From NCBI GenBank assembly GCA_024279275.1, contig JAJRRS010000128.1, positions 2,121 through 66,120 on the forward strand: DNA of 64,000 nt, in the 5' to 3' direction. This stretch comes from Planctomycetota bacterium (GTDB taxonomy: Bacteria > Planctomycetota > Phycisphaerae > Phycisphaerales > Phycisphaeraceae). The notes beneath the pieces are model-generated. The model ran no database searches. It saw nothing but the letters and a program-made list of their open reading frames with translations, and had not been told where the DNA came from. Positions 1,347 to 56,264 of this stretch are shown one piece after another. The position numbers and the translations under genes were made by a program. Position 1 is the stretch's first letter. Every line of letters starts with the position of its first letter.

Positions 1347-1388
1347 CCGTTTAGCGGCGGATCGCAGATCCGCGCGTTAGCCCAACGG
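1347..1388 (+). repeat. REP-like module J: CCGTTTAGC + hairpin GCGGATC-GCA-GATCCGC + GCGTTAGCC
   Basis: A near-identical copy lies at 9581-9621. It shares the 5-prime GTTTAGC with modules C and L. Confidence 0.85.
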
Positions 1389-1485
1389 GCCAAACTTTCC
1401 CAACGCAGACCATGTGCCGGGGTTGAACGCACGAGTATTTACAGGCCCCCGTATATTCACACCCACCCACCCCCCCCCCACAATT

Positions 1486-7644: not shown

Positions 7645-8988
7645 ATGAGAAAGACCGACAAGCCGATCATTGCCCTCACCGCCGTACTGATCCTCATCCT
7701 CACCGCCGCCCTTCTCATCAAAGCCGCCCCCACCTCCACCCCCAACGCCGCCCCTGAGCAACGCGAAGGCTCGGATATCCCCTCCCCCACATCATCAATC
7801 ATAAATCAAAAATCAGAAATCTCCCCCCCCTCCACCACCCTCGCCCCCAACGCCGTCCGCGGCGTCAACTACGCCCACATCCACCGCAACAACAAAGGCT
7901 ACGGCTCGGACGCCTCCAAACGCGAACTCACCAACCTACAAAACCTCGGCATCGACTGGATCGCAATCACACCCTTCGGCTACCAAAGCTCCGCCGACCA
8001 AAACCAGATCGCAGGCTACGACCCCAACCAACCCCTCTCCGCGTTTACCACAACCCCTCCCCCGTTTAGCCCGGTCGCCCGCGACCGGTCCCCTTCCCCA
8101 CTTCATCAATCAGCACTCACACATCAAACCTCCCCCCGCCCCTCCTCCACATCAGCACTCAGCACTCACACCTCAGCACTCACCCCCCGCCCCGGCCAAG
8201 ACCGCTCACTCACCGACCGCCACCTCGCCGAGCAAGTCGCCGCCGCACACCGGCTCGGCGTCAAAGTCCTCATCAAGCCTCACATCTGGTCACGCGACTT
8301 CTGGAACGGCGACGCCTGGCACGGCACCATCGAACAAAACTCACCCAAAGACCACGAATCCTGGCGAAAATCCTACCTACGATTCATCCTGCACCACGCA
8401 CAACTCGCCCAAGACACAAACGCCGAAGCTCTATGCATCGGCACCGAACTCATCAGCCAGACCACCCACCACCCCGACGACTGGCTCACACTCATACGCG
8501 AAGTCAAAAAAATCTACTCTGGCAAACTCACCTACGCCGCACACTGGGATCAGGAGTTCCAGGCCATCACCTTCTGGGACCAACTCGACGCCATCGGCAT
8601 CAGCGCCTACTTCCCACTGGATGCACCCGACAACGCAACCGTCAAACAACTCGTCGATGCCTGGCAACCTCACAAAAAACGGATCGAAGCGGCACACACC
8701 CTCTACAACAAGCCCGTCGTCTTCCTGGAAATAGGCTACCGCCCCGCCACAGGCACCTACCGCCAACCCTGGCTCGACCGCGGCGGCCAACCCGATCCCA
8801 TCGCACAGGCACGCGCCTACGAAGCCCTCTTCCAAACCTACGCCGACGAACCCTGGTGGCACGGCCTGTTCATCTGGAAAGTCTTCACCGACGCCCAAAG
8901 AAGCGATCACCACGGTACCGGCCCCGGCTACTCCTTCAGAAACCAACCCGCCGAGCAAGTCATCCAACAATGGTTCCGCCAACCCTGA
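7645..8988 (+). CDS. Membrane-anchored TIM-barrel glycoside-hydrolase-like protein (clan GH-A / GH113-like) carrying in-frame repeat insertions
   Basis: N-terminal TM helix, then GVNYAHIH..GYGS, WIAITPFGYQ, VLIKPHIW, CIGTELI, LTYAAHWDQE and FLEIGY motifs. The family assignment is by recollection only. Confidence 0.6.
   Translation: MRKTDKPIIALTAVLILILTAALLIKAAPTSTPNAAPEQREGSDIPSPTSSIINQKSEISPPSTTLAPNAVRGVNYAHIHRNNKGYGSDASKRELTNLQNLGIDWIAITPFGYQSSADQNQIAGYDPNQPLSAFTTTPPPFSPVARDRSPSPLHQSALTHQTSPRPSSTSALSTHTSALTPRPGQDRSLTDRHLAEQVAAAHRLGVKVLIKPHIWSRDFWNGDAWHGTIEQNSPKDHESWRKSYLRFILHHAQLAQDTNAEALCIGTELISQTTHHPDDWLTLIREVKKIYSGKLTYAAHWDQEFQAITFWDQLDAIGISAYFPLDAPDNATVKQLVDAWQPHKKRIEAAHTLYNKPVVFLEIGYRPATGTYRQPWLDRGGQPDPIAQARAYEALFQTYADEPWWHGLFIWKVFTDAQRSDHHGTGPGYSFRNQPAEQVIQQWFRQP
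7744..7821 (+). repeat. Module A variant (7744-7782) plus heptad module D (7788-7821) inside the CDS
   Basis: AACGCCGCCCCTGAGCAACGCGAAGGCTCGGATATCCCC and CACATCATCAATCATAAATCAAAAATCAGAAATC translate in frame as NAAPEQREGSDIPSPTSSIINQKSEI. Confidence 0.85.
8051..8200 (+). repeat. Module C REP (8064-8088) plus D-type heptads (8098-8192) inside the CDS
   Basis: GTTTAGCCCGGTCGCCCGCGACCGG followed by CAGCACT heptads translates in frame as PFSPVARDRSPSPLHQSALTHQTSPRPSSTSALSTHTSALTP. Confidence 0.85.
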
Positions 8989-9398
8989 TACGCACCCCCA
9001 ACCACCCATCATCCAACACAATATCAATCCCCCCCCCAACGCCGCCCCTGATCGCAGCAAAGCGGCGGGTATCCCCACCCTCCTCAGAACCCTCCCCCGT
9101 TTAGCCCGGTCGCCCGCGACCGGCTCCCCCCTCCCCCACGAAGCGCCGCGACTTGTCGCGCTCCCCCATCCCCACCCCACGCACCCACTCCACGCTTGCG
9201 GTTTAGCGCCCCTCTTCACCCCAGCACGCAAACCCCTCCCCCTCCCCACATCATCAATCAGCAACCGCAGGTCCGCGAAGCGAAATCACAATTCATACAT
9301 CTCCCCCCACCCCCTCCTCACCTCAGCAATCAGCACTCACACCTCAGACCTCCCCCACTTGGCCCAACCCCCCTCCCCCCGCTAGACTGATACACACC
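8989..9398 (+). repeat. Mosaic repeat cluster: A 9038-9076, C 9099-9123, B 9137-9160, an extra GTTTAGC at 9201, D-type heptads 9246-9350
   Basis: Each module matches copies in the 13.1, 15.0-15.8 and 16.8-17.7 kb clusters. Confidence 0.85.
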
Positions 9399-9471
9399 GG
9401 CCCTGTAGCCCAATGGCAGAGGCACGCGACTTAAAATCGCGCCAGTGTGGGTTCGAGTCCCACCAGGGCCA
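9399..9471 (+). tRNA. tRNA, 73 nt, class I cloverleaf, anticodon UAA by manual fold (isotype uncertain)
   Basis: Acceptor GGCCCTG/CAGGGCC, D arm GCC..GGC with GG in the loop, anticodon stem CGCGA/TCGCG with loop CTTAAAA, 5-nt variable region, T arm GTGGG-TTCGAGT-CCCAC, discriminator A. CCA is not encoded. Confidence 0.75.
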
Positions 9472-9580
9472 TTCACCTCCTTATGCCAATCCCGAACAGA
9501 ACTCGTACGTCAGCGGAATCCCCTCCCCGAACCGTTCACCGATATCCGCCAACCTCCGATATCCGTCAACCCAGGCCCGA

Positions 9581-9621
9581 CGTTTAGCGGCGGATCGCAG
9601 ATCCACGCGTTGGCCTAACGG
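9581..9621 (+). repeat. REP-like module J, second copy
   Basis: CGTTTAGCGGCGGATCGCAGATCCACGCGTTGGCCTAACGG, compared with 1347-1388. Confidence 0.85.
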
Positions 9622-9890
9622 GACAATCGCCCCCCCCCACATAACGTGTGTCCGGGGGCAACCGCAAAAGATTTAACGGGATTGGCATTAAAGCCTTGTC
9701 GATTCAAGACGCACCCATCAGACGTCCGATAATGTTTGCTCGCGGCAGGCTTGCCTATCTTCACACCCCAAGAACTTTGCCAAATAATATTTTCACTCAT
9801 ATCTTAATTGATAACAAGTGGTTATATGACTTTTGCACGCCCAACAACCCCTTCTTTCCCATCATGGGGGGTGTAATTTCAGAGAAAGGG

Positions 9891-9898
9891 TGTATAAT
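9891..9898 (+). promoter_or_regulatory. Candidate extended -10 promoter element TGTATAAT
   Basis: A perfect TGnTATAAT lies 70 nt upstream of the ATG at 9969, in an AT-rich stretch. No clear -35 element is present. Confidence 0.25.
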
Positions 9899-9968
9899 TC
9901 ACCTGTTGTAAAAGGAGGGGACTTCGCATCCGTAAACTCTATTAGCGTGGAGTGAAGGAGAAGTCCTG

Positions 9969-10859
9969 ATGACTGGTCAAATTAGTGCCCCACGGTCGCG
10001 CAATAGCTGCGTCCGTACCCTGTCGCTCACTGCGGCAATTCTCACAACCGGATTCTTAACGGCCAACGCCGCGCAAGCGGATGTCTATGGCTTTGAGTGG
10101 GATCGCCCCGCCGTATTCGACGGCAATGCCGGGCCTATCTATGTCAGTGATGAAGCAGGTGTCATCACCAGTATCACCACCCAATACAACTCTGACACCC
10201 AGAGCCTCTCCTTCGTCGCCGCCTTCGAGCCAGAACCCGGCACGGGCCAACTCCCCGTCGGCTTCTTCCTCGTTCTCAACAACGGCCCGATGCCCATCGG
10301 CATGGACGGCGAGTTCGCCATCCTGTACTTCGATGCCATCACCGGCGCCGCACCCACCGTCACCGCCTACGCCTACAACGGCGAAAACGGTGCAGACTCC
10401 TTCTTCGACGGGGCCGCAGCACCCGGCAACCAGGCTCCCGACCCCATCGTCTCATCGATCAACGACCCCTCCTTTGTTACCGCCGCCTCCAGCGTCGATG
10501 GCCCAGGCGGACGCGTCCTCTCCTTCACCATCGACACCACCGCCATCAACGCACACAACCCGCTCTACGGCAACGCCGTAGACTGGCAAGGCATCGGCTT
10601 CGATGAAAACATCGGCGTCTGGTTCCACCCCTACTCGAACTTGAACCCAGCCTACGGCCAAGACGGCTTCCTCCTACCCGACCCCTCCGGCGCAAGCTGG
10701 CTCACCTGGGGCCAATACCCCGACCAGGGCGAACAGTTCCACGGCTGGCTCGACGCGACCAACCAGCAATCCAACGTACTCATCCCTGAACCCGCCAGCC
10801 TCACCCTGATCGGCCTGGGCGCCATCGCACTCACAACCAGAGGCCGTCGCAACGCATAA
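9969..10859 (+). CDS. PEP-CTERM sorting-domain secreted protein, function unknown
   Basis: Signal peptide (LTAAILTTGFLTANAAQA). The C-terminus is IPEPASLTLIGLGAIALTTRGRRNA. Confidence 0.75.
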   Translation: MTGQISAPRSRNSCVRTLSLTAAILTTGFLTANAAQADVYGFEWDRPAVFDGNAGPIYVSDEAGVITSITTQYNSDTQSLSFVAAFEPEPGTGQLPVGFFLVLNNGPMPIGMDGEFAILYFDAITGAAPTVTAYAYNGENGADSFFDGAAAPGNQAPDPIVSSINDPSFVTAASSVDGPGGRVLSFTIDTTAINAHNPLYGNAVDWQGIGFDENIGVWFHPYSNLNPAYGQDGFLLPDPSGASWLTWGQYPDQGEQFHGWLDATNQQSNVLIPEPASLTLIGLGAIALTTRGRRNA

Positions 10860-11070
10860 ACAACAACACCCCCGGCACAGGCCGATTCATCGGCCGCCTC
10901 CTGCCGCTCGCGGCTTCGCGTAGTCCAGAACCACACGCAACAAAGGGATTCTTGAACACCCGCCAACATAGATAATTTTCCGATCTGCTAGTTTCGATCG
11001 GTGTAGTTTGCTAGGGATCTGGACAGGCTTATCCTCCCAGGTAGGTCCGACCAGATGCCCAACCCACAAA

Positions 11071-11109
11071 CGTTTCGGGTGTGTTGCACAGCCACCCGAA
11101 GCGTTTTTT
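11071..11109 (+). terminator. Rho-independent terminator with no adjacent plus-strand CDS
   Basis: CGTTTCGGGTG-(11-nt loop)-CACCCGAAGCG forms an 11-bp stem, followed by TTTTTT. The nearest plus-strand stop is 210 nt upstream. Confidence 0.65.
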
Positions 11110-11158
11110 CATGCGCCCATCAACCACGAGTGCCGTGTAATTTAACCGTGCGAGTTAT

Positions 11159-11183
11159 GTTTAGCCGCCGCGGCCACGCGGCG
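11159..11183 (+). repeat. REP-like module L: GTTTAGC + hairpin CGCCGCG-GCCA-CGCGGCG
   Basis: A reverse-complement copy lies at 56240-56264. Confidence 0.8.
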
Positions 11184-11261
11184 TATTCGATGCACTAAAC
11201 TGACCACCCGAACCATTAATGCATCGTTGCGAACGATAGTGAATCAGCTCAATCTCCCCTT

Positions 11262-11293
11262 AACAAAAAAAAGCGACCCATCAAGGATCGCTT
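11262..11293 (-). terminator. Rho-independent terminator of tRNA-Ala
   Basis: The minus strand reads AGCGATCC-TTGAT-GGGTCGCT followed by TTTTTTTT. Confidence 0.65.
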
Positions 11294-11327
11294 TTCGTTG
11301 TTTTATGGGTCCAAAACCCGTATTAAG

Positions 11328-11400
11328 TGGAGCTGACAGGGATCGAACCTGCGACCTTCTGTATGCCATACAGACGCTCTCCCAACTGAGCTACAGCCCC
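11328..11400 (-). tRNA. tRNA-Ala (anticodon GGC)
   Basis: The reverse complement is GGGGCTGTAGCTCAGTTGGGAGAGCGTCTGTATGGCATACAGAAGGTCGCAGGTTCGATCCCTGTCAGCTCCA. It has the G3:U70 Ala identity pair and anticodon loop ATGGCAT. Confidence 0.92.
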
Positions 11401-11574
11401 ATAGTGTCCCTCCCGGCGCGGGAAGTATAAGCCCCACAGCCCCCCGCAGCAACCCGATCCCCCCCGCCTCCAGCGACCCAGAAGCCTCCAATACCGTCAT
11501 CTATCGACCAGATCACCCTATTACACAACCACCCCGGATGTGCTATCATTTAATGCTCGGCTGAATCTGTCCTC

Positions 11575-13131: not shown

Positions 13132-13474
13132 GCCCCCATCCCCCCTCAACCTCATCACCAACTCCCAACGCCGCCCCCTGAGCGCAGCGAAGGGGCGGAT
13201 CTCGCCTCCAAAACACTCTCTCCTGACCTTCCCCCACGAAGCGCCGCGACTTGTCGCGTCCCCTCTCCCCCATTTAGCCCGGTCGCTCGCGACCGGCTCC
13301 CCTCCCCACATCATAAATCGGGGCCTCTGAATAACCTCGGCGGAGGCTGATTTAGCAGCCGTGATTGCACGGAATCACACTCACTGAAGGGTTATTCAGA
13401 GATCCCAATCATCAATCACACATCATAAATCCCCCTCCTCCCCCCTCAAATACACATCGCTTTTAGCCGAACCT
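13132..13474 (+). repeat. Mosaic repeat cluster: A 13167-13202, B 13235-13258, C variant 13272-13296, D 13305-13320 and 13405-13435, unique 12-bp inverted repeat 13325-13336/13389-13400
   Basis: Module matches to the other clusters. The inverted-repeat arms are CTCTGAATAACC and GGTTATTCAGAG. Confidence 0.8.
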
Positions 13475-15037: not shown

Positions 15038-15773
15038 CCCCATCTTCACCTGACACCACCACCCCAAAGCCGCAGGCTGCGAAGCTGCCGCGGATCTCCC
15101 CACGTTTCTCCCTCACCATCTCCCCCCTCCTAACGCCGCCCCTGAGCGCAGCGAAGATGCGGGTATCCCCCCACCACCAAAATACTGACCTTCCCCACGA
15201 AACGCCGCAACGTGTCGCGTCCCCCCTCCCCCGTTTAGCCCGGTCGCCCGCGACCGGCTCCCCTCCTCACATCATCAATCATAAATCAACAACCATAGGC
15301 CACCGAAGCTAAATCATAAATCCCCCTCCCCCACGAAACGCCGCGCCCCGGCACGCCTTTCCCTATTCCAAATCTGCGTCATCTGCGCAATCTGCGGACA
15401 CCTCCCCCTCCCCTCTTCACATCAGCAATCATAAATCACAATTCATACCTCCCCCTCCCCACATCAGCACTCAGCAATCACACATCAGCACTCCCCCCCC
15501 ACCCCCAACGCCGCCCCTGAGCGCAGCGAAGGGACGGGTATCCCCCCACCCCCGTTTACCTCAATCACTCACGCCCTGCCACGCCTTTCCCTATTCCAAA
15601 TCTGCGTCATCTGCGCAATCTGCGGACACATCCCCTCCCCACATCAGCAATCATAAATCACAATTCATACCTCCCCTCCCCCTCCTCACCTCAGCACTCA
15701 GCAACCGCAACTCCGCAAAGCGATATCTTCTCTCCACCGTGCAACTCCCTCCCACATCGCTACACTGTCCGCC
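15038..15773 (+). repeat. Largest mosaic repeat array: A 15132-15170 and 15507-15546, B 15196-15219 and partial 15332-15345, C 15233-15257, E 15351-15401 and 15580-15629, many D heptads
   Basis: A 735-bp gene-free interval composed almost entirely of modules separated by C-rich CCCCTCCCC linkers. It contains an internal ~100-bp duplication (15352-15454 vs 15580-15675). Confidence 0.9.
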
Positions 15774-16825: not shown

Positions 16826-17647
16826 AACGCCGCCCCTGAGCGCAGCGAAGGGACGGGTATCCCCCACCCCTCCCCGTTTAGCCCGGTCGCCCGCGACCGG
16901 CTCTTCCACTCCCCCCTGCGACCGGCTCTAACCCTCTAAACCCGCGACAAACCCCCATCGCTGCCGCCGCAACCCCTGCCTCACCGGATTACCTTCGACA
17001 TACTTCACACACTGCCCCACACGCTCAGACGTATCCAGATAAACAATCCACCCACCCATCGCCCAAGGTGTCGGCACCCGACCGTGACGATCAACACACC
17101 CCGCCAGCGGGCGAACACCCTCAGCACTCATCCGCCTTGTGCCTGCACTTTTTAACCGCTGCGATATCTCTTCCCCGTCGAGCCTGTGCCGAGCAACCAC
17201 CATATGCACATGGTCCGGCATGATTGCACACGCATACACATTCAACCCTGTCTGCTCAATTACCTGCCCAAACCCACGCCCCACCGCCCGCGCCTGAACG
17301 CCCGTTAACCGTACCGGCGGGTACTTCAACACCCCTTGCATCTCGCGCCGTCGGCCACGGTCGTAATTTTGATGTGCCACCGATCGCGTCGTCTCAACCT
17401 TCGTCGCCATACCAAACCGTTGAAGATGTCTCGCCCAAACCCTCGTTGACCACGAACCCCGCGACTCATTGGGAAGCCAAAACCCATAGGTAGACCAGAT
17501 GATATGGGAAGCGATAGCCATCAGGATTCCACCGTATCAAAGATACTGGTCGCGGGCGACCGGGCAAACACAAGACGACACTCCCTCCCCCCATTTAGCC
17601 CGGTCGCCGCCTCCCCCTCCCCGTTTAGCCCGGTCGCCCGCGACCGG
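16826..17647. mobile_element. REPtron-like unit: RAYT-type transposase gene bracketed by module C REPs
   Basis: Module A lies at 16826-16865 and module C at 16876-16900. A partial C at 16918-16928 overlaps the transposase stop. A partial C lies at 17593-17608 and a full C at 17623-17647. Confidence 0.7.
16928..17521 (-). CDS. HUH/Y1 transposase of IS200/IS605 TnpA type, REP-associated tyrosine transposase (RAYT)-like
   Basis: HUH motif PDHVHMVVA and catalytic Tyr context VKYVEGNPVRQGL. It is 197 aa, has no partner tnpB and is flanked by REPs. Confidence 0.8.
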   Translation of the reverse strand: MAIASHIIWSTYGFWLPNESRGSWSTRVWARHLQRFGMATKVETTRSVAHQNYDRGRRREMQGVLKYPPVRLTGVQARAVGRGFGQVIEQTGLNVYACAIMPDHVHMVVARHRLDGEEISQRLKSAGTRRMSAEGVRPLAGCVDRHGRVPTPWAMGGWIVYLDTSERVGQCVKYVEGNPVRQGLRRQRWGFVAGLEG

Positions 17648-19509: not shown

Positions 19510-20970
19510 TTACCGCTTGATCGTCCCCAGATCAACCACCACCCCGCCGGGCTGATAATAGTCCACCCCCAACGTATCACGATCCAGAAACGTAAACACC
19601 ACCGCACTCGCCCGCAGCCGCTCCACGAATCCCAGATCCCCCGCACCAGGCCCCGCATACGAAGCATTATTAAACTGCTGTGCATGGAAATGATAATGAG
19701 CAAGCCCCGTATACATCCGTCGGATCAGCGCGTCAGACGAATAAAACTTCAGATCATGCAAACGAATCTCCGGCGGATACGCCAATGCAACAACCCGTCC
19801 ACCCTCACCAACCAACACCCCCCCATGCTCCGATGTCCTGTCAACCAAATCCCGATCCGCCTGCATGAACAACCCCGCCACCAACGCACGATCCGCCAAC
19901 GCATCAAGCAAGAGTTCGATCGTCATCAGGTCAGCGAAACACAACGACTCAGCATGGTCCGCCAAGGATTCCGAGGGCAACCCCAACGCAGCCCCCACCT
20001 CGGTACGAACCGTCCCCTGCCCAGGACCAATCAACCCTGCAACACGCGACAACAGCATGCCCTTACTCAACCCCGGGTCCGAAATACCAGCCATCATGAC
20101 CGTCGGCAGATGCCGCAGCTCAAGCCCCTCCCGCTGCTTGTCCGTCAACCGCCCAGCCGACCGCTGGGCACGCTCCCAATATGCCCCACCCGACTGGCTA
20201 CGTACCTGCATCAACCAAAGCACCGCCTCGCGATTCACCGGCAAAACGCTCAACCAACGCGCCGCCTTAAGATCAAGAATCACCGGCTCCCGCGAATCCA
20301 TCCCCAACAACAACCCCCGCGCCTGATCAGCACCCACCAGCCGATGCATCAAAACCCACGCATCCACTCGCGCCGCCGTCGTAACCGTTTCATCGTCACT
20401 GACGAACACCTCCCACACCGCCTGCTCAACCGTTACCCCCGGGTTCAGCGCCTCGATCGCCGCACGTTCCGGGGGAACCGGGGGAACCGGGGGAACCGGG
20501 GGAGCCGGGGGAGCCGGGGGAGCCGGGGGTTGATCGTCTGTGTAAAATCGCGATTGTTGTGCGTAGCTGCGCACCAGCGCCACCGTGAAACCCGGGTCGC
20601 CATGCTCCACCGCACGATCTATCAAGAGCTTTCGCACCGCCAAGAGATCAACCTCTCGAAGGTGTTCCCGCGCAGCAGCCCAAAACGCATCCTGATCGTA
20701 TTCAATCAGCCGATCCATCGACCACAACCGCAACGCCGTCGGCTGAGCATCCGACCACAGCACACGGTACATCACCGCCACCGCACGCCGAGCATCGGGC
20801 AGGTCAGACAGATTGCCTAATTGCTTCGCCGCCGCCAGACGCCGGCCCGGGTCTCTATCACGATCGAGCATCACCGCCAGCGGATCGGCCACGGGCGTCG
20901 GCCCACAACCCGACAGGGAGGCTAACAATGCTATTGAAACCACCAACCACCCGACAACTTGCTTCATCAC
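19510..20970 (-). CDS. Lipoprotein with a diverged JAB/MPN (JAMM)-like C-terminal domain
   Basis: MMKQVVGWLVVSIALLASLSGC lipobox. The C-terminus has SEHGGVLVG ... HYHFHAQQFNNAS...GAGD, which resembles but does not exactly match E..HxHx7Sx2D. Confidence 0.55.
   Translation of the reverse strand: MMKQVVGWLVVSIALLASLSGCGPTPVADPLAVMLDRDRDPGRRLAAAKQLGNLSDLPDARRAVAVMYRVLWSDAQPTALRLWSMDRLIEYDQDAFWAAAREHLREVDLLAVRKLLIDRAVEHGDPGFTVALVRSYAQQSRFYTDDQPPAPPAPPAPPVPPVPPVPPERAAIEALNPGVTVEQAVWEVFVSDDETVTTAARVDAWVLMHRLVGADQARGLLLGMDSREPVILDLKAARWLSVLPVNREAVLWLMQVRSQSGGAYWERAQRSAGRLTDKQREGLELRHLPTVMMAGISDPGLSKGMLLSRVAGLIGPGQGTVRTEVGAALGLPSESLADHAESLCFADLMTIELLLDALADRALVAGLFMQADRDLVDRTSEHGGVLVGEGGRVVALAYPPEIRLHDLKFYSSDALIRRMYTGLAHYHFHAQQFNNASYAGPGAGDLGFVERLRASAVVFTFLDRDTLGVDYYQPGGVVVDLGTIKR
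20469..20529 (+). repeat. 9-bp tandem repeat: CCGGGGGAA x3 then CCGGGGGAG x3 (+ partial), inside the CDS
   Basis: It encodes PPAPPAPPAPPVPPVPPVPP on the minus strand. The DNA unit is the same as at 41382-41413. Confidence 0.9.
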
Positions 20971-38948: not shown

Positions 38949-41471
38949 CTATTTCAATATCACCACAACCCGATGCTCACCGTTTGGTGCCTCAGGCGGC
39001 GGGATGACAGCCCCATCGATCCGTTTGCCATCGACCGTAACCGACGCAACGGTAAGACCCGCCCCGTCGGGACGTGTAACCTCGATGTGATACACATTGC
39101 TACGGTAACGCCTGGTCATCTTAAACCCCGGCCAATGCGACGGGATGCACGGGTCGATCAGCAACCCCTCCCATGTCGGCCGAACACCCATGATCGATTC
39201 CATCAGCACCCGGTAAACCCATGCCGACGATCCCGTGTACCACGTCCAGCCACCACGCCCATACAGCGGCGAGTCCGGACCATCGACATTCGCAGCCATG
39301 ACATAAGGCTCACACTGATACAACTTCGCGTCCATCCCCCGCTGCGGTGGCGACATCTTGCGGAACAAATTCCACGCCTTGTCAGGCCGCTTCAGTTGGC
39401 ACTCCATCTGAATAGCCCAGGCGGCGGCATGAGTGTACAGCCCGCCGTTCTCGCGCGTGCCCGCAGCATAGCGTGTCAGATATCCGATACGCGGGTCGGG
39501 GTTCGTGTAAGCCGGTTGCAAAAGTACCGCGCCGTAGTCCCGGTAGAGTTTTGTCTCCAGCGATTCGAGTACCGCCTCTTTGCGATCGTCGGGAACGATG
39601 CCGCTGAGGATCGACCAGACCTGCGGGTTCAGGTGGATCTTGCCTTCATGTGCGGTGTCGCTACCAACAAGCGTACCGTCGTCGCAACTCGCGGCCCAGT
39701 ACCATTGGCCGTCCCAACCATGAGTGTTTACCGCATCAGTGAGGCTCTTGATCTCCGCACGGTAATGTTCGACACGCTGCTGCTCTTGCGCGGGCAACTT
39801 GCCGTTTTTAATCGCACGTTCAATTGCGGGGCAGAACTCATTGAGGATCGCAACCAGGAACTGCGCCACCCAGACGCTCTCGCCCTTGCCTTCCCAACCG
39901 GTGACGGAAAACCCGTCATTCCAATCCCCGGTCCCGATCAACGGCAGCCCGCGTTCGCTGCGCTTAGAGAACGACCGTTCGATCGCCCGCGTGCAGTGTT
40001 CGTAAAGCGTGCCGGTGTGATCGGCATCAATCGCTTGATCGAGATAGGGCGCGGTCTCGTTGAAGATACCAAAGTCGGCTGTCTCTTTGAGGTAGTTGCA
40101 AGTTACAAATGGCAACCAGAGCAGGTCGTCGGAGAACTGCGACTCCATGCCGTCTTCCGTGATCGGGTGCCACCAGTGCTGGACGTGACCCGCCGAAAAC
40201 TGATGCGCCGCGTGGAGCATGATCTGCGCCTTGGTTCGCGTGGGGTCCAGGTGCAGGAAGAGTTGACTGTCCTGCAATTGATCCCGGTAGCCAAACGCCC
40301 CCCCGGTCTGGTAGTACGCGGTCCGCCCCCAGATACGCGACGACAGCGACTGGTACTTCAGCCAGCGGTTGACCATGAGGTTCACACCGTCGTCAGGCGT
40401 GTCGGCTTGCGATGCATCCATCCAGCGCGACCAGAACTTTTCAACCTCACGCATGGCCTTATCGACCGCGTCGGGTTGTTGATACTGTTGGACACTCTGC
40501 TCAGCTTGTTCGCTGGAATCAGCAACGCCCAGCGTAAATATCATCGTCTGGGATTCACCCGGTGCAAGTTCGACTGGCACACGCAGACTCGCCACCGAGT
40601 CGTCCCATCGGCCGGTCGTCTTGGCGACATATCCTCCTTCGCGCAACGCCATAGGCGACGCGTTCGTGCCGTACTGCCCGATGAAAGCTTCTTTGTTGCC
40701 GGACGCCGCAGAAGCGGGAAGGTCCACACTGTGGAACGCGACCTTGTCCCAATCACGGTTCCAGTGCTGCCCCTTTTCGTTTTGGATATCCCACATCCGC
40801 TTGGTGGCGAAGACCGCGCGATGGTCGTCTGCGAGTTGGGTTTCAAGAAACGTCTTATGAAACTCCCGGTGAGTGTCGGGCGCGACGCCTAAACACCATT
40901 CGAGATAGGACCAGACCGACAAAATCCGTTTACGCTTGCCTTTGTTAGTTAGCGTGAGCCGCCAGATCTCAACCGATTCACCCGGCGGAACTGTCAACGT
41001 CATCTGTGTCTCGACGTCTTGGTTGACTGTCGTGAAAGTAGTGTACCCGATGCCGTGTCTGCATTCGTATGATTCGTAATCCTTGCAGACAGGCTTCCAC
41101 GAGGGCGACCAGAACTCGCCGGTGTCTTCGTCGCGGATGTAGAGATATTTTCCACATGAGTCAGAAACCAGATCCTGGTCCCAGCGTGTAATGCGGTTAA
41201 GCCCCGCGTGTGTCTGCCACGAGTAACCGCCACCGATCTGTGAGACCACCAGGCCGTAGTCACCCGGGCAGATCACGTTGACCCAAGGCTTGGGCGTGTC
41301 CGGGCGCGTGATGACATACTCGCTGCCGTCGGCAGTGAAGTAGCCGTAGCCGTTGTCAAACAGCTTGCCTGACAGTGAGCTGGGGGAACCGGGGGAACCG
41401 GGGGAACCGGGGGCATTGACTTTCACGGGTTTGATAATAGGTCGGGTCACTCTAGTCACAACATACTCCAA
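38949..41471 (-). CDS. GH94-family glycoside phosphorylase (cellobiose/chitobiose/laminaribiose phosphorylase-like)
   Basis: FDNGYGYFTADGSEYVITRPDTPKPW, GGAFGYRDQLQDS and GTGDWNDG motifs. Length is 840 aa. The N-terminal 35 aa carry the 9-bp repeat. Confidence 0.88.
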   Translation of the reverse strand: MEYVVTRVTRPIIKPVKVNAPGSPGSPGSPSSLSGKLFDNGYGYFTADGSEYVITRPDTPKPWVNVICPGDYGLVVSQIGGGYSWQTHAGLNRITRWDQDLVSDSCGKYLYIRDEDTGEFWSPSWKPVCKDYESYECRHGIGYTTFTTVNQDVETQMTLTVPPGESVEIWRLTLTNKGKRKRILSVWSYLEWCLGVAPDTHREFHKTFLETQLADDHRAVFATKRMWDIQNEKGQHWNRDWDKVAFHSVDLPASAASGNKEAFIGQYGTNASPMALREGGYVAKTTGRWDDSVASLRVPVELAPGESQTMIFTLGVADSSEQAEQSVQQYQQPDAVDKAMREVEKFWSRWMDASQADTPDDGVNLMVNRWLKYQSLSSRIWGRTAYYQTGGAFGYRDQLQDSQLFLHLDPTRTKAQIMLHAAHQFSAGHVQHWWHPITEDGMESQFSDDLLWLPFVTCNYLKETADFGIFNETAPYLDQAIDADHTGTLYEHCTRAIERSFSKRSERGLPLIGTGDWNDGFSVTGWEGKGESVWVAQFLVAILNEFCPAIERAIKNGKLPAQEQQRVEHYRAEIKSLTDAVNTHGWDGQWYWAASCDDGTLVGSDTAHEGKIHLNPQVWSILSGIVPDDRKEAVLESLETKLYRDYGAVLLQPAYTNPDPRIGYLTRYAAGTRENGGLYTHAAAWAIQMECQLKRPDKAWNLFRKMSPPQRGMDAKLYQCEPYVMAANVDGPDSPLYGRGGWTWYTGSSAWVYRVLMESIMGVRPTWEGLLIDPCIPSHWPGFKMTRRYRSNVYHIEVTRPDGAGLTVASVTVDGKRIDGAVIPPPEAPNGEHRVVVILK
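41382..41413 (+). repeat. 9-bp tandem repeat GGGGGAACC x3 (+ partial) inside the 5-prime end of the GH94 CDS
   Basis: It encodes PGSPGSPGSP on the minus strand. The unit is identical to 20469-20495 but read in a different frame. Confidence 0.9.
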
Positions 41472-55994: not shown

Positions 55995-56239
55995 GGCCCC
56001 TCCACACAAATCACAACTCTCTCCCAGCCTGGCTCGAAAATGTAATCGATTACATCTGGGTAATATACCACAATTCTGGACCATTACCACATAAATCCAC
56101 GGCAATGCCGATCCCGTTTATTTACGTCGGTCAACCCCGGCACACGGCGAGCGTTAGGGATGATCAGAGAATTCGAGCGGATATACCTTGCTCGTAGCAT
56201 TGCGTTCAGGGTTCAGATGGTTAGTTAAAGCACCAAGCT

Positions 56240-56264
56240 CGCCGCGTGGCCGCGACGGCTAAAC
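56240..56264 (-). repeat. REP-like module L, inverted copy
   Basis: The reverse complement is GTTTAGCCGTCGCGGCCACGCGGCG, compared with 11159-11183. Confidence 0.8.

Follow-up and report, generated by a model that had tools for sequence, protein, structure and literature searches.

Why should three repeats with unrelated hairpins begin with the same seven nucleotides? The question is raised by a 64-kb stretch of a Planctomycetota genome (64,000 nt of contig JAJRRS010000128.1, assembly GCA_024279275.1; this whole stretch is called the window below), in which an earlier note had distinguished three repeat modules, C, J and L, each placing its own GC-rich hairpin directly 3' of GTTTAGC. The note had likened them to the repetitive extragenic palindromes (REPs) of Escherichia coli, which are served by a REP-associated tyrosine transposase (RAYT), and had proposed that one enzyme, or one family, services all three hairpins. 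We find that GTTTAGC followed by a hairpin is concentrated beside RAYT-like genes, and that C, J and L are likely to be REPs of a divergent, Planctomycetota-wide RAYT family in which GTTTAGC replaces GTAG as the conserved foot of the hairpin.

The 7-mer GTTTAGC occurs 15 times in the window against an expectation of 3.33 +/- 1.62, a count that none of 100 dinucleotide-preserving shuffles reached. The plus strand has nine copies between 1.3 and 17.7 kb, and a single intergenic copy is found at 56264 on the minus strand; the remaining five, on the minus strand from 34.8 to 51.5 kb, lack a hairpin, and their number is about that expected by chance. Ten of the 15 are intergenic or inserted in genes, and nine of these continue directly into a C, J or L hairpin. 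An excess of hairpins after GTTTAGC over control positions had been set beforehand as a test, and it is found window-wide: a perfect hairpin of at least 6 bp follows 7 of the 15 exact copies (47%) but only 0.46% of random positions. Among the 7-mers found immediately 5' of GC-rich hairpins in the window, GTTTAGC is by far the most frequent (6 of 34).

Module C reads GTTTAGC-CCGGTCGC-CC-GCGACCGG, module J reads GTTTAGC-G-GCGGATC-GCA-GATCCGC (the J-type hairpin can also be written GGCGGATC-GCA) and module L reads GTTTAGC-CGCCGCG-GCCA-CGCGGCG (the L-type hairpin being CGCCGCG-GCCA). There are six hairpin copies of C, all within 10 kb and one with the foot ATTTAGC, plus two of J and two of L. The three unrelated hairpin families placed behind one motif by the earlier note are thus borne out, with small corrections. 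Five of its six C positions are exact, whereas the one at 13272 deviates in both foot and loop; the two J copies exist but start 1-2 nt away from where they had been placed, and the stem of the copy at 9582 has one mismatch; both L copies are present, the one at 56264 reading CGTCGCG and so containing one G.T pair. Of the orphan motifs, GTTTAGC is indeed found at 9201, whereas the GTTTACC assigned to 15553 begins at 15554; this GTTTACC and another at 8041 are both without hairpins. Three degenerate copies of C had been overlooked, one inverted (17546-17569, minus strand), one truncated (17593-17607) and one reduced to a right-arm fragment (16918-16928).

Also absent from the earlier note is a RAYT-like gene of the HUH/Y1 tyrosine transposase type (16928-17521, minus strand), the only RAYT locus in the 64 kb. 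Its product matches Pfam family PF01797 (Y1_Tnp) with 24.1 bits against a cutoff of 23, and its sequence matches in the PDB are weak and fall on ISDra2 and IS200 transposases. The HUH motif reads P-D-H104-V-H106 and the catalytic tyrosine lies in Y174-V-E-G-N-P (YVEGNP); across 23 aligned homologues H104, H106, Y174, N178 and P179 never vary, W153 and W158 are conserved, with no evident WQ, and the family shares an N-terminal motif, YGFWLPN..RGSWS. The pattern Y---NP is the signature of class 2 (RAYT) enzymes (Quentin et al. 2018, PMC6006769). An AlphaFold2 model of the protein (pLDDT 86.3) has as its top Foldseek match in the PDB the chain 4er8_A, from the E. coli RAYT-REP complex (E = 1.5e-5, TM 0.44/0.51), followed by about 29 chains of IS200/IS605 TnpA. 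Judged by its sequence, the protein is a divergent relative of the NF047646 family (REP_Tyr_transpos) and no equivalog. The gene is bracketed by an inverted pair of C copies, 16876-16900 on the plus strand and 17546-17569 on the minus strand, accompanied by the copy at 17623 and by fragments; this is a REPtron arrangement, and most of the homologous loci described below are organised likewise.

A protein search returned more than 1200 homologues, those with a name being mostly from Planctomycetota (Pirellulales, Phycisphaerae, Tepidisphaeraceae) and often carrying the JGI label RayT. Searching species-representative genomes with the RAYT alignment gave 583 confirmed loci, almost all in Planctomycetota, the best match to the window protein being 62% identical. 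For comparison we used the best 80 of these 583 loci with 10-kb flanks (individual loci are given as L numbers); nearly all are from Planctomycetota metagenome-assembled genomes (MAGs), at 43-62% protein identity. In these genomes an exact GTTTAGC with a perfect GC-rich hairpin behind it is found again and again right beside the RAYT gene, and the sequence of the hairpin varies from one genome to another. In the 80 loci the density of foot-plus-hairpin sites, with up to one mismatch allowed in the foot, is 2.45 per kb up to 300 nt from the RAYT gene versus 0.072 per kb elsewhere, a 34-fold concentration; the near-RAYT sites number 112, compared with a mean of 3.1 for 40 permuted feet, and a further 79 tagged hairpins lie far from the gene. 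Of the 80 loci, 52 have an exact GTTTAGC no more than 200 nt from the gene, and 44 have it on both sides; if close variants (TTTTAGC, GTGTAGC, GTTTCGC and others) are included, 71 loci have a foot, where permuted 7-mers average 2.6 loci. When sites are anchored on TAGC only, conservation reaches exactly three bases 5' of it (G, T and T) and then vanishes, which indicates that the foot is 7 nt long.

Behind this foot the stems vary by compensatory changes: the 80 loci show 78 distinct foot-plus-hairpin types with 53 distinct left arms, and at least four base-pair types at each stem position. A large clade that at first seemed to lack tagged hairpins has a bulged one, GTTTAGC-CGCGACCC-GCA-GGGGAGCGCG, which in some loci is fused into long double-foot palindromes, GTTTAGC...GCTAAAC. 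Long perfect palindromes of this form flank the RAYT gene in L049 (590-655 and 1437-1504), L042 and L068 (9929-9978). At L041, positions 9732-9977 hold six tandem 41-nt units that each start with GTTTAGC; a reading of these as a CRISPR was rejected, since the would-be spacers are identical and the window has no arrays.

The type of hairpin follows the RAYT clade in a neighbour-joining tree of the proteins. Pairs of loci with the same hairpin have RAYTs that are 67.6% identical, against 51.9% for other pairs, a difference that none of 2000 label permutations reached. The window RAYT groups with that of L001, and a CCGGTCGC-NN-GCGACCGG hairpin, common to the four closest RAYTs, flanks its nearest homologues (62-75% identity). 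The foot is GTTTAGC beside the RAYTs of L083 (75% identity) and L082 (68%), and GTGTAGC or GTTGAGC beside that of L001 (62%). Because the same hairpin stands beside the closest homologues and inverted C copies bracket the gene, module C is, as far as sequence can tell, the cognate REP of the window RAYT. The RAYT gene of L083 (7189-7826, GCA_029260695.1) appears to be split or frameshifted, with 136 aa called and the N-terminal motif encoded upstream, yet it is still flanked by GTTTAGC-CCGGTCGC-TT-GCGACCGG. At L001 (9900-9990 and 10589-10670) the C hairpin is kept, and the REPs form inverted doublets resembling REPINs on both sides of the RAYT gene; there, and at L056, the foot is GTGTAGC. As this variant contains the canonical GTAG, it suggests that the GTTTAGC and GTAG feet are homologous and that the Planctomycete foot is an extended relative, with TTAG in the place of GTAG.

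Modules L and J match the REPs of other RAYT clades. The 25-mer of L in the window recurs unchanged in L006, in REPs flanking the RAYT gene, and in L002, as a dispersed copy, and the L type characterises a clade formed by L023, L035, L002, L005, L017, L006 and L041. Module J of the window resembles REPs of the L040/L070 clade and a REP in L032. These matches favour one enzyme family with several lineages. Of the two options left by the earlier note, a family is therefore favoured and a single enzyme disfavoured, and J and L would represent two further REP lineages, with cognate RAYT clades that occur in other genomes. Nine MAGs have two RAYT paralogues; wherever REPs were detected beside both, their types differ, and REPs of one type are found dispersed near the locus of the other paralogue. 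Most likely, J and L are serviced by paralogous RAYTs elsewhere in the source genome, or are relics of lost ones.

The J and L copies of the window also say something of the unit itself. Both begin exactly at the G of GTTTAGC, with unrelated upstream flanks, and continue for about 70 nt beyond the hairpin in a 3' extension that is homologous between copies (local alignment scores of 21.5 and 18.5 against 7.5-7.7 +/- 1.3-1.4 for shuffled sequences, z of about 8-10). The 25-nt core is 96% conserved and the extension only about 60% identical, a difference that points to constraint on foot and hairpin. Folded as single-stranded DNA, the extensions show no conserved second structure, and their z-scores are weak. 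Module L copy 1 (11159-11205) carries the reverse complement of the foot, CTAAAC, 11 nt past the hairpin, which gives it the look of an asymmetric double-foot element; copy 2 has only TTTAAC in this place.

Taken together, a REP of this Planctomycetota system would consist of an unpaired 7-nt GTTTAGC, 0-2 nt, and a GC-rich stem of 6-8 bp closed by a loop of 2-5 nt, one clade having a longer bulged stem instead. The foot would stay nearly constant across the RAYT family, and stem and loop would co-evolve with each RAYT lineage. By analogy with E. coli TnpA-REP and IS200/IS605 TnpA, the HUH/Y1 enzyme is expected to bind single-stranded DNA at the hairpin, with a specificity for structure and lineage, and to read the unpaired foot with base specificity as a guide element; cleavage and rejoining may then take place nearby through Y174, with a metal held by H104 and H106. 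The part of GTTTAGC in guiding or cleavage is modelled on the same enzymes. The one clue in the sequence to the site of strand transfer is that the J and L units start at the G of GTTTAGC, which probably places one junction at the 5' edge of the foot.

Could a single enzyme suffice after all? The window RAYT might recognise mainly GTTTAGC with any stable hairpin, so that C, J and L would all be its substrates. The presence of one RAYT locus only in 64 kb and of an identical foot in the three modules is in line with this, and single RAYTs are flanked by two or three stem variants in, for example, L005, L040, L055 and L002, which implies some tolerance of the stem; the E. coli RAYT likewise coexists with the REP subfamilies Y, Z1 and Z2 (Quentin et al. 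2018, PMC6006769). However, variants beside one RAYT are a few compensatory pairs apart and usually keep the loop, whereas between C, J and L the entire stem and the loop are different. Hairpin type moreover tracks RAYT clade, J-type and L-type hairpins flank other clades, genomes in which RAYT genes are accompanied by two REP types hold two RAYT paralogues, and J and L are low in copy number and diverged outside the core. We consider such a generalist enzyme unlikely. The corresponding general view, that recognition is dominated by a phylum-constant 7-nt foot, with the hairpin interchangeable and one enzyme able to mobilise C, J and L, is a doubtful one; if true, it would mean an HUH nuclease addressed by a naturally modular "foot plus hairpin" code, which in this genome would also seed oriented intergenic mosaics and in-frame gene insertions.

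Other explanations dispense with the transposase. GTTTAGC and its hairpin could be a regulatory or structural element of the host, such as a 3' end stabiliser, a terminator or a protein-binding site, with an incidental link to the RAYT. Each of the ten window copies is oriented in sense to a same-strand gene that it follows or lies within, and would be transcribed as GUUUAGC plus hairpin; a KorB operator half-site also reads TTTAGC; and E. coli REPs, which play a secondary part in mRNA stability and are bound by IHF and gyrase, offer a precedent. Intrinsic terminators were nevertheless rejected, since the hairpins are not followed by a T-tract, one copy being terminator-like, and terminator-like sites are not enriched in the window (25 versus 18.8 +/- 4.6). 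A known RNA family was rejected for J and L as well, an Rfam scan of the window at gathering thresholds and an E-value scan of 9300-11500 having returned only two tRNAs. A 34-fold concentration beside RAYT genes, on both sides and over 80 genomes, would not be expected of a regulatory site, and the orientation relative to the RAYT gene is mixed and often inverted. A purely host-borne element is thus very improbable, although a secondary function at the RNA level may exist in addition to the RAYT link. Nor is it credible that the foot is shared merely by common descent or by chance, C, J and L having diverged from one ancestral repeat in which GTTTAGC was unconstrained. Compensatory changes in the stem are a known route by which REP families diversify inside a genome (Di Nocera et al. 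2013, PMC3733652), but the foot is kept beside at least 53 stems in dozens of genomes whose RAYTs are 43-62% identical, and these comparative data contradict the idea; the core of J and L is conserved while the adjacent extension has drifted, and for two more unrelated hairpins to gain the same 7-mer by chance has an estimated probability of roughly 1e-7 (4^-7 per family, allowing a few offsets and strands).

Several points weigh against a family of lineage-specific RAYTs with the GTTTAGC foot. The best NCBIfam match of the window protein, to NF047646, scores 45.2 bits and so lies under the curated cutoff of 80; its identity to the E. coli RAYT is 18%, and binding and cleavage by it are argued from analogy. 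The foot is not the canonical GT[AG]G, and at 9 of the 80 loci the 200 nt next to the gene showed no foot variant. The homologous 3' stretch of some 70 nt in J and L, which was not found in the other genomes compared, is something a simple REP can do without. The copy numbers of C, J and L are those within the 64-kb window. Finally, the window copies are mostly singletons in direct orientation and not REPIN doublets: the doublets that the earlier note had suggested looking for are rare here, the decayed pair at 17546-17647 being the only one, but doublets or double-foot palindromes are present in L001, L049, L042 and L068. The comparison with REPs and RAYTs holds all the same, given a RAYT-like gene bracketed by C, flanking enrichment over 80 loci and a constant foot with varying stems.

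Table 1. Repeat copies, fragments and the transposase gene in the window.
Feature	Position	Strand	Remarks
Module J, copy 1	1349-1445	+	Core (foot and hairpin) 1349-1373; homologous 3' extension of ~70 nt
Module C	8064-8088	+	Within in-frame mosaic insertion of the GH113 gene
Module C	9099-9123	+	
Orphan GTTTAGC	9201-9207	+	No hairpin; relic or chance
Module J, copy 2	9582-9680	+	Core 9582-9606; one stem mismatch
Module L, copy 1	11159-11257	+	Core 11159-11183
Module C variant	13272-13296	+	Foot ATTTAGC, loop TC
Weak candidate ATTTAGC-AG-CCGTG-ATTG-CACGG	13350-13372	+	5-bp stem; within larger inverted repeat
Module C	15233-15257	+	
Module C	16876-16900	+	27 nt past RAYT stop codon; foot distal to gene
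Module C fragment	16918-16928	+	Right arm only (GCGACCGGCTC)
RAYT-like HUH/Y1 tyrosine transposase gene	16928-17521	-	197 aa; Pfam, NCBIfam, motifs, fold
Module C, inverted, decayed	17546-17569	-	25 nt upstream of RAYT start; foot GTTTGC (A deleted), one stem mismatch; read directly
Module C, truncated	17593-17607	+	ATTTAGC and left arm only
Module C	17623-17647	+	Upstream of RAYT gene
Module L, copy 2	56167-56264	-	Core 56264-56240; one G.T in stem

The surroundings of these repeats are themselves rich in short modules. Between 7700 and 17800 the intergenic DNA consists of mosaics recalling bacterial interspersed mosaic elements (BIMEs), made of at least six further repeat modules in one orientation with CCCCTCCCC spacers between them; examples are AACGCCGCCCCTGAGCGCAGCGAAGGGxCGGGTATCCCC, CACGAAGCGCCGCGACTTGTCGCG, ATCTGCGTCATCTGCGCAATCTGCGGACAC and CACATCAxCAATCAxxAxTCACA, and none of these further modules has a GTTTAGC foot. 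The region 13326-13400 contains a 12-bp inverted repeat, CTCTGAATAACC...GGTTATTCAGAG, around a small hairpin and the weak candidate of Table 1, and looks like a separate small insertion within the mosaic. A GH113 beta-mannanase gene (7645-8988, plus strand) carries an in-frame insertion of about 62 aa through which the reading frame stays open; residues 71-125 and 188-445 of its product align to residues 38-91 and 95-341 of 7dv7_A. The insertion (8020-8206) is encoded by a C-rich mosaic that includes module C at 8064, and the N-terminal linker (7735-7840) is likewise mosaic-encoded.

On a larger scale, the plus strand of positions 1-37000 has a very strong GC skew of -0.3 to -0.4 and a positive AT skew, independent of gene orientation; the GC skew fades and switches sign at about 38-46 kb, where the cumulative skew has its minimum, as at a replication origin, and no dnaA was found among the few open reading frames (ORFs) scanned around these positions. 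We rejected a preference of the foot for the C-rich, lagging-type strand, which is true of all window copies, whereas the 80 loci are unbiased (104 versus 89). Tandem 9-nt repeats (GAACCGGGG and variants) occur in coding regions at 20457-20538 and 41368-41431, and encode PPV/PPA runs in the protein of the ORF at 19510-20970 (minus strand).

A 7-nt foot of this kind seems to be new. Published feet are GT[AG]G in subclasses 2.2, 2.4, 2.5, 2.7 and 2.8 (Quentin et al. 2018, PMC6006769), CGTC in a REP superfamily of Di Nocera et al. (2013, PMC3733652), and CnGA in class 3 TnpA-Y1, which occurs in Planctomycetes and has a Y----Q motif (Quentin et al. 2018). GTTTAGC as a foot is absent from the text and supplements of both papers, and a literature search for it returned only unrelated primer and operator sequences, no such foot being described in the searchable library. 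We thus add a large RAYT clade that we did not find described, with more than 1200 homologues and 583 confirmed loci almost all in Planctomycetota, and identify its cognate REPs, whose foot is distinct from the published GT[AG]G, CGTC and CnGA. A constant foot with lineage-varying stems amounts to a natural mutational series with which to separate foot recognition from hairpin recognition in HUH/Y1 enzymes. It also provides an annotation rule for REPs of Planctomycetota: GTTTAGC, 0-2 nt, GC-rich hairpin. For the window, the C, J and L components of its repetitive intergenic DNA are explained, and the other mosaic modules remain unexplained.

Among known systems, the GTAG and CGTC REP superfamilies and class 3 likewise consist of tagged stem-loops tied to Y1 genes; Planctomycetes are already known carriers, with GTAG-20/21/22 REPs in Rhodopirellula baltica (Di Nocera et al. 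2013, PMC3733652), and in-frame REP insertions into genes have been reported. However, the R. baltica RAYT rba11751 (PMC3733652) has another sequence around the HUH motif, and class 3 has Y----Q where the window RAYT family has Y---NP. The REPIN-RAYT system of Pseudomonas fluorescens (Bertels and Rainey 2011, PMC3116915) resembles ours in having several REP lineages per genome, each with its own RAYT paralogue; there and in subclass 2.5 (Quentin et al. 2018) REPs and their RAYT are inherited together and co-evolve, the hairpins are short, and 1-2 nt may separate foot and stem. It differs in foot sequence, RAYT clade and phylum, and in that our window copies are mostly singletons, with doublets or double-foot palindromes occurring in relatives (L001, L049, L042, L068).

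The IS200/IS605 transposases (IS608, ISDra2) share the catalytic fold and the HUH/tyrosine chemistry, and they recognise subterminal hairpins on single-stranded DNA together with a short guide 5' of the hairpin foot, as the window RAYT may do by analogy. In contrast to these elements, the window gene has no tnpB and no left and right ends of insertion-sequence type, is single-copy in the window, and its hairpins are dispersed as independent units of 25-28 nt. There is also a likeness in outline to the E. coli REP/BIME system and its RAYT (TnpA-REP, YafM; 4ER8): in both, a stand-alone HUH/Y1 gene lies within inverted short GC-rich palindromes, the palindromes are dispersed intergenically with an unpaired conserved foot immediately 5' of the hairpin, and the repeats are set in mosaics of other short modules, and 4er8_A is the best structural match of the window protein. 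Here, however, the foot is the 7-nt GTTTAGC with TTAG at the position of GTAG, GTGTAGC being found in the L001 and L056 lineages alone; the stems, mostly perfect, are short; and the transposase, of 197 aa, has the YGFWLPN..RGSWS N-terminal motif, falls under the NCBIfam RAYT cutoff and shares 18% of its residues with the E. coli enzyme.

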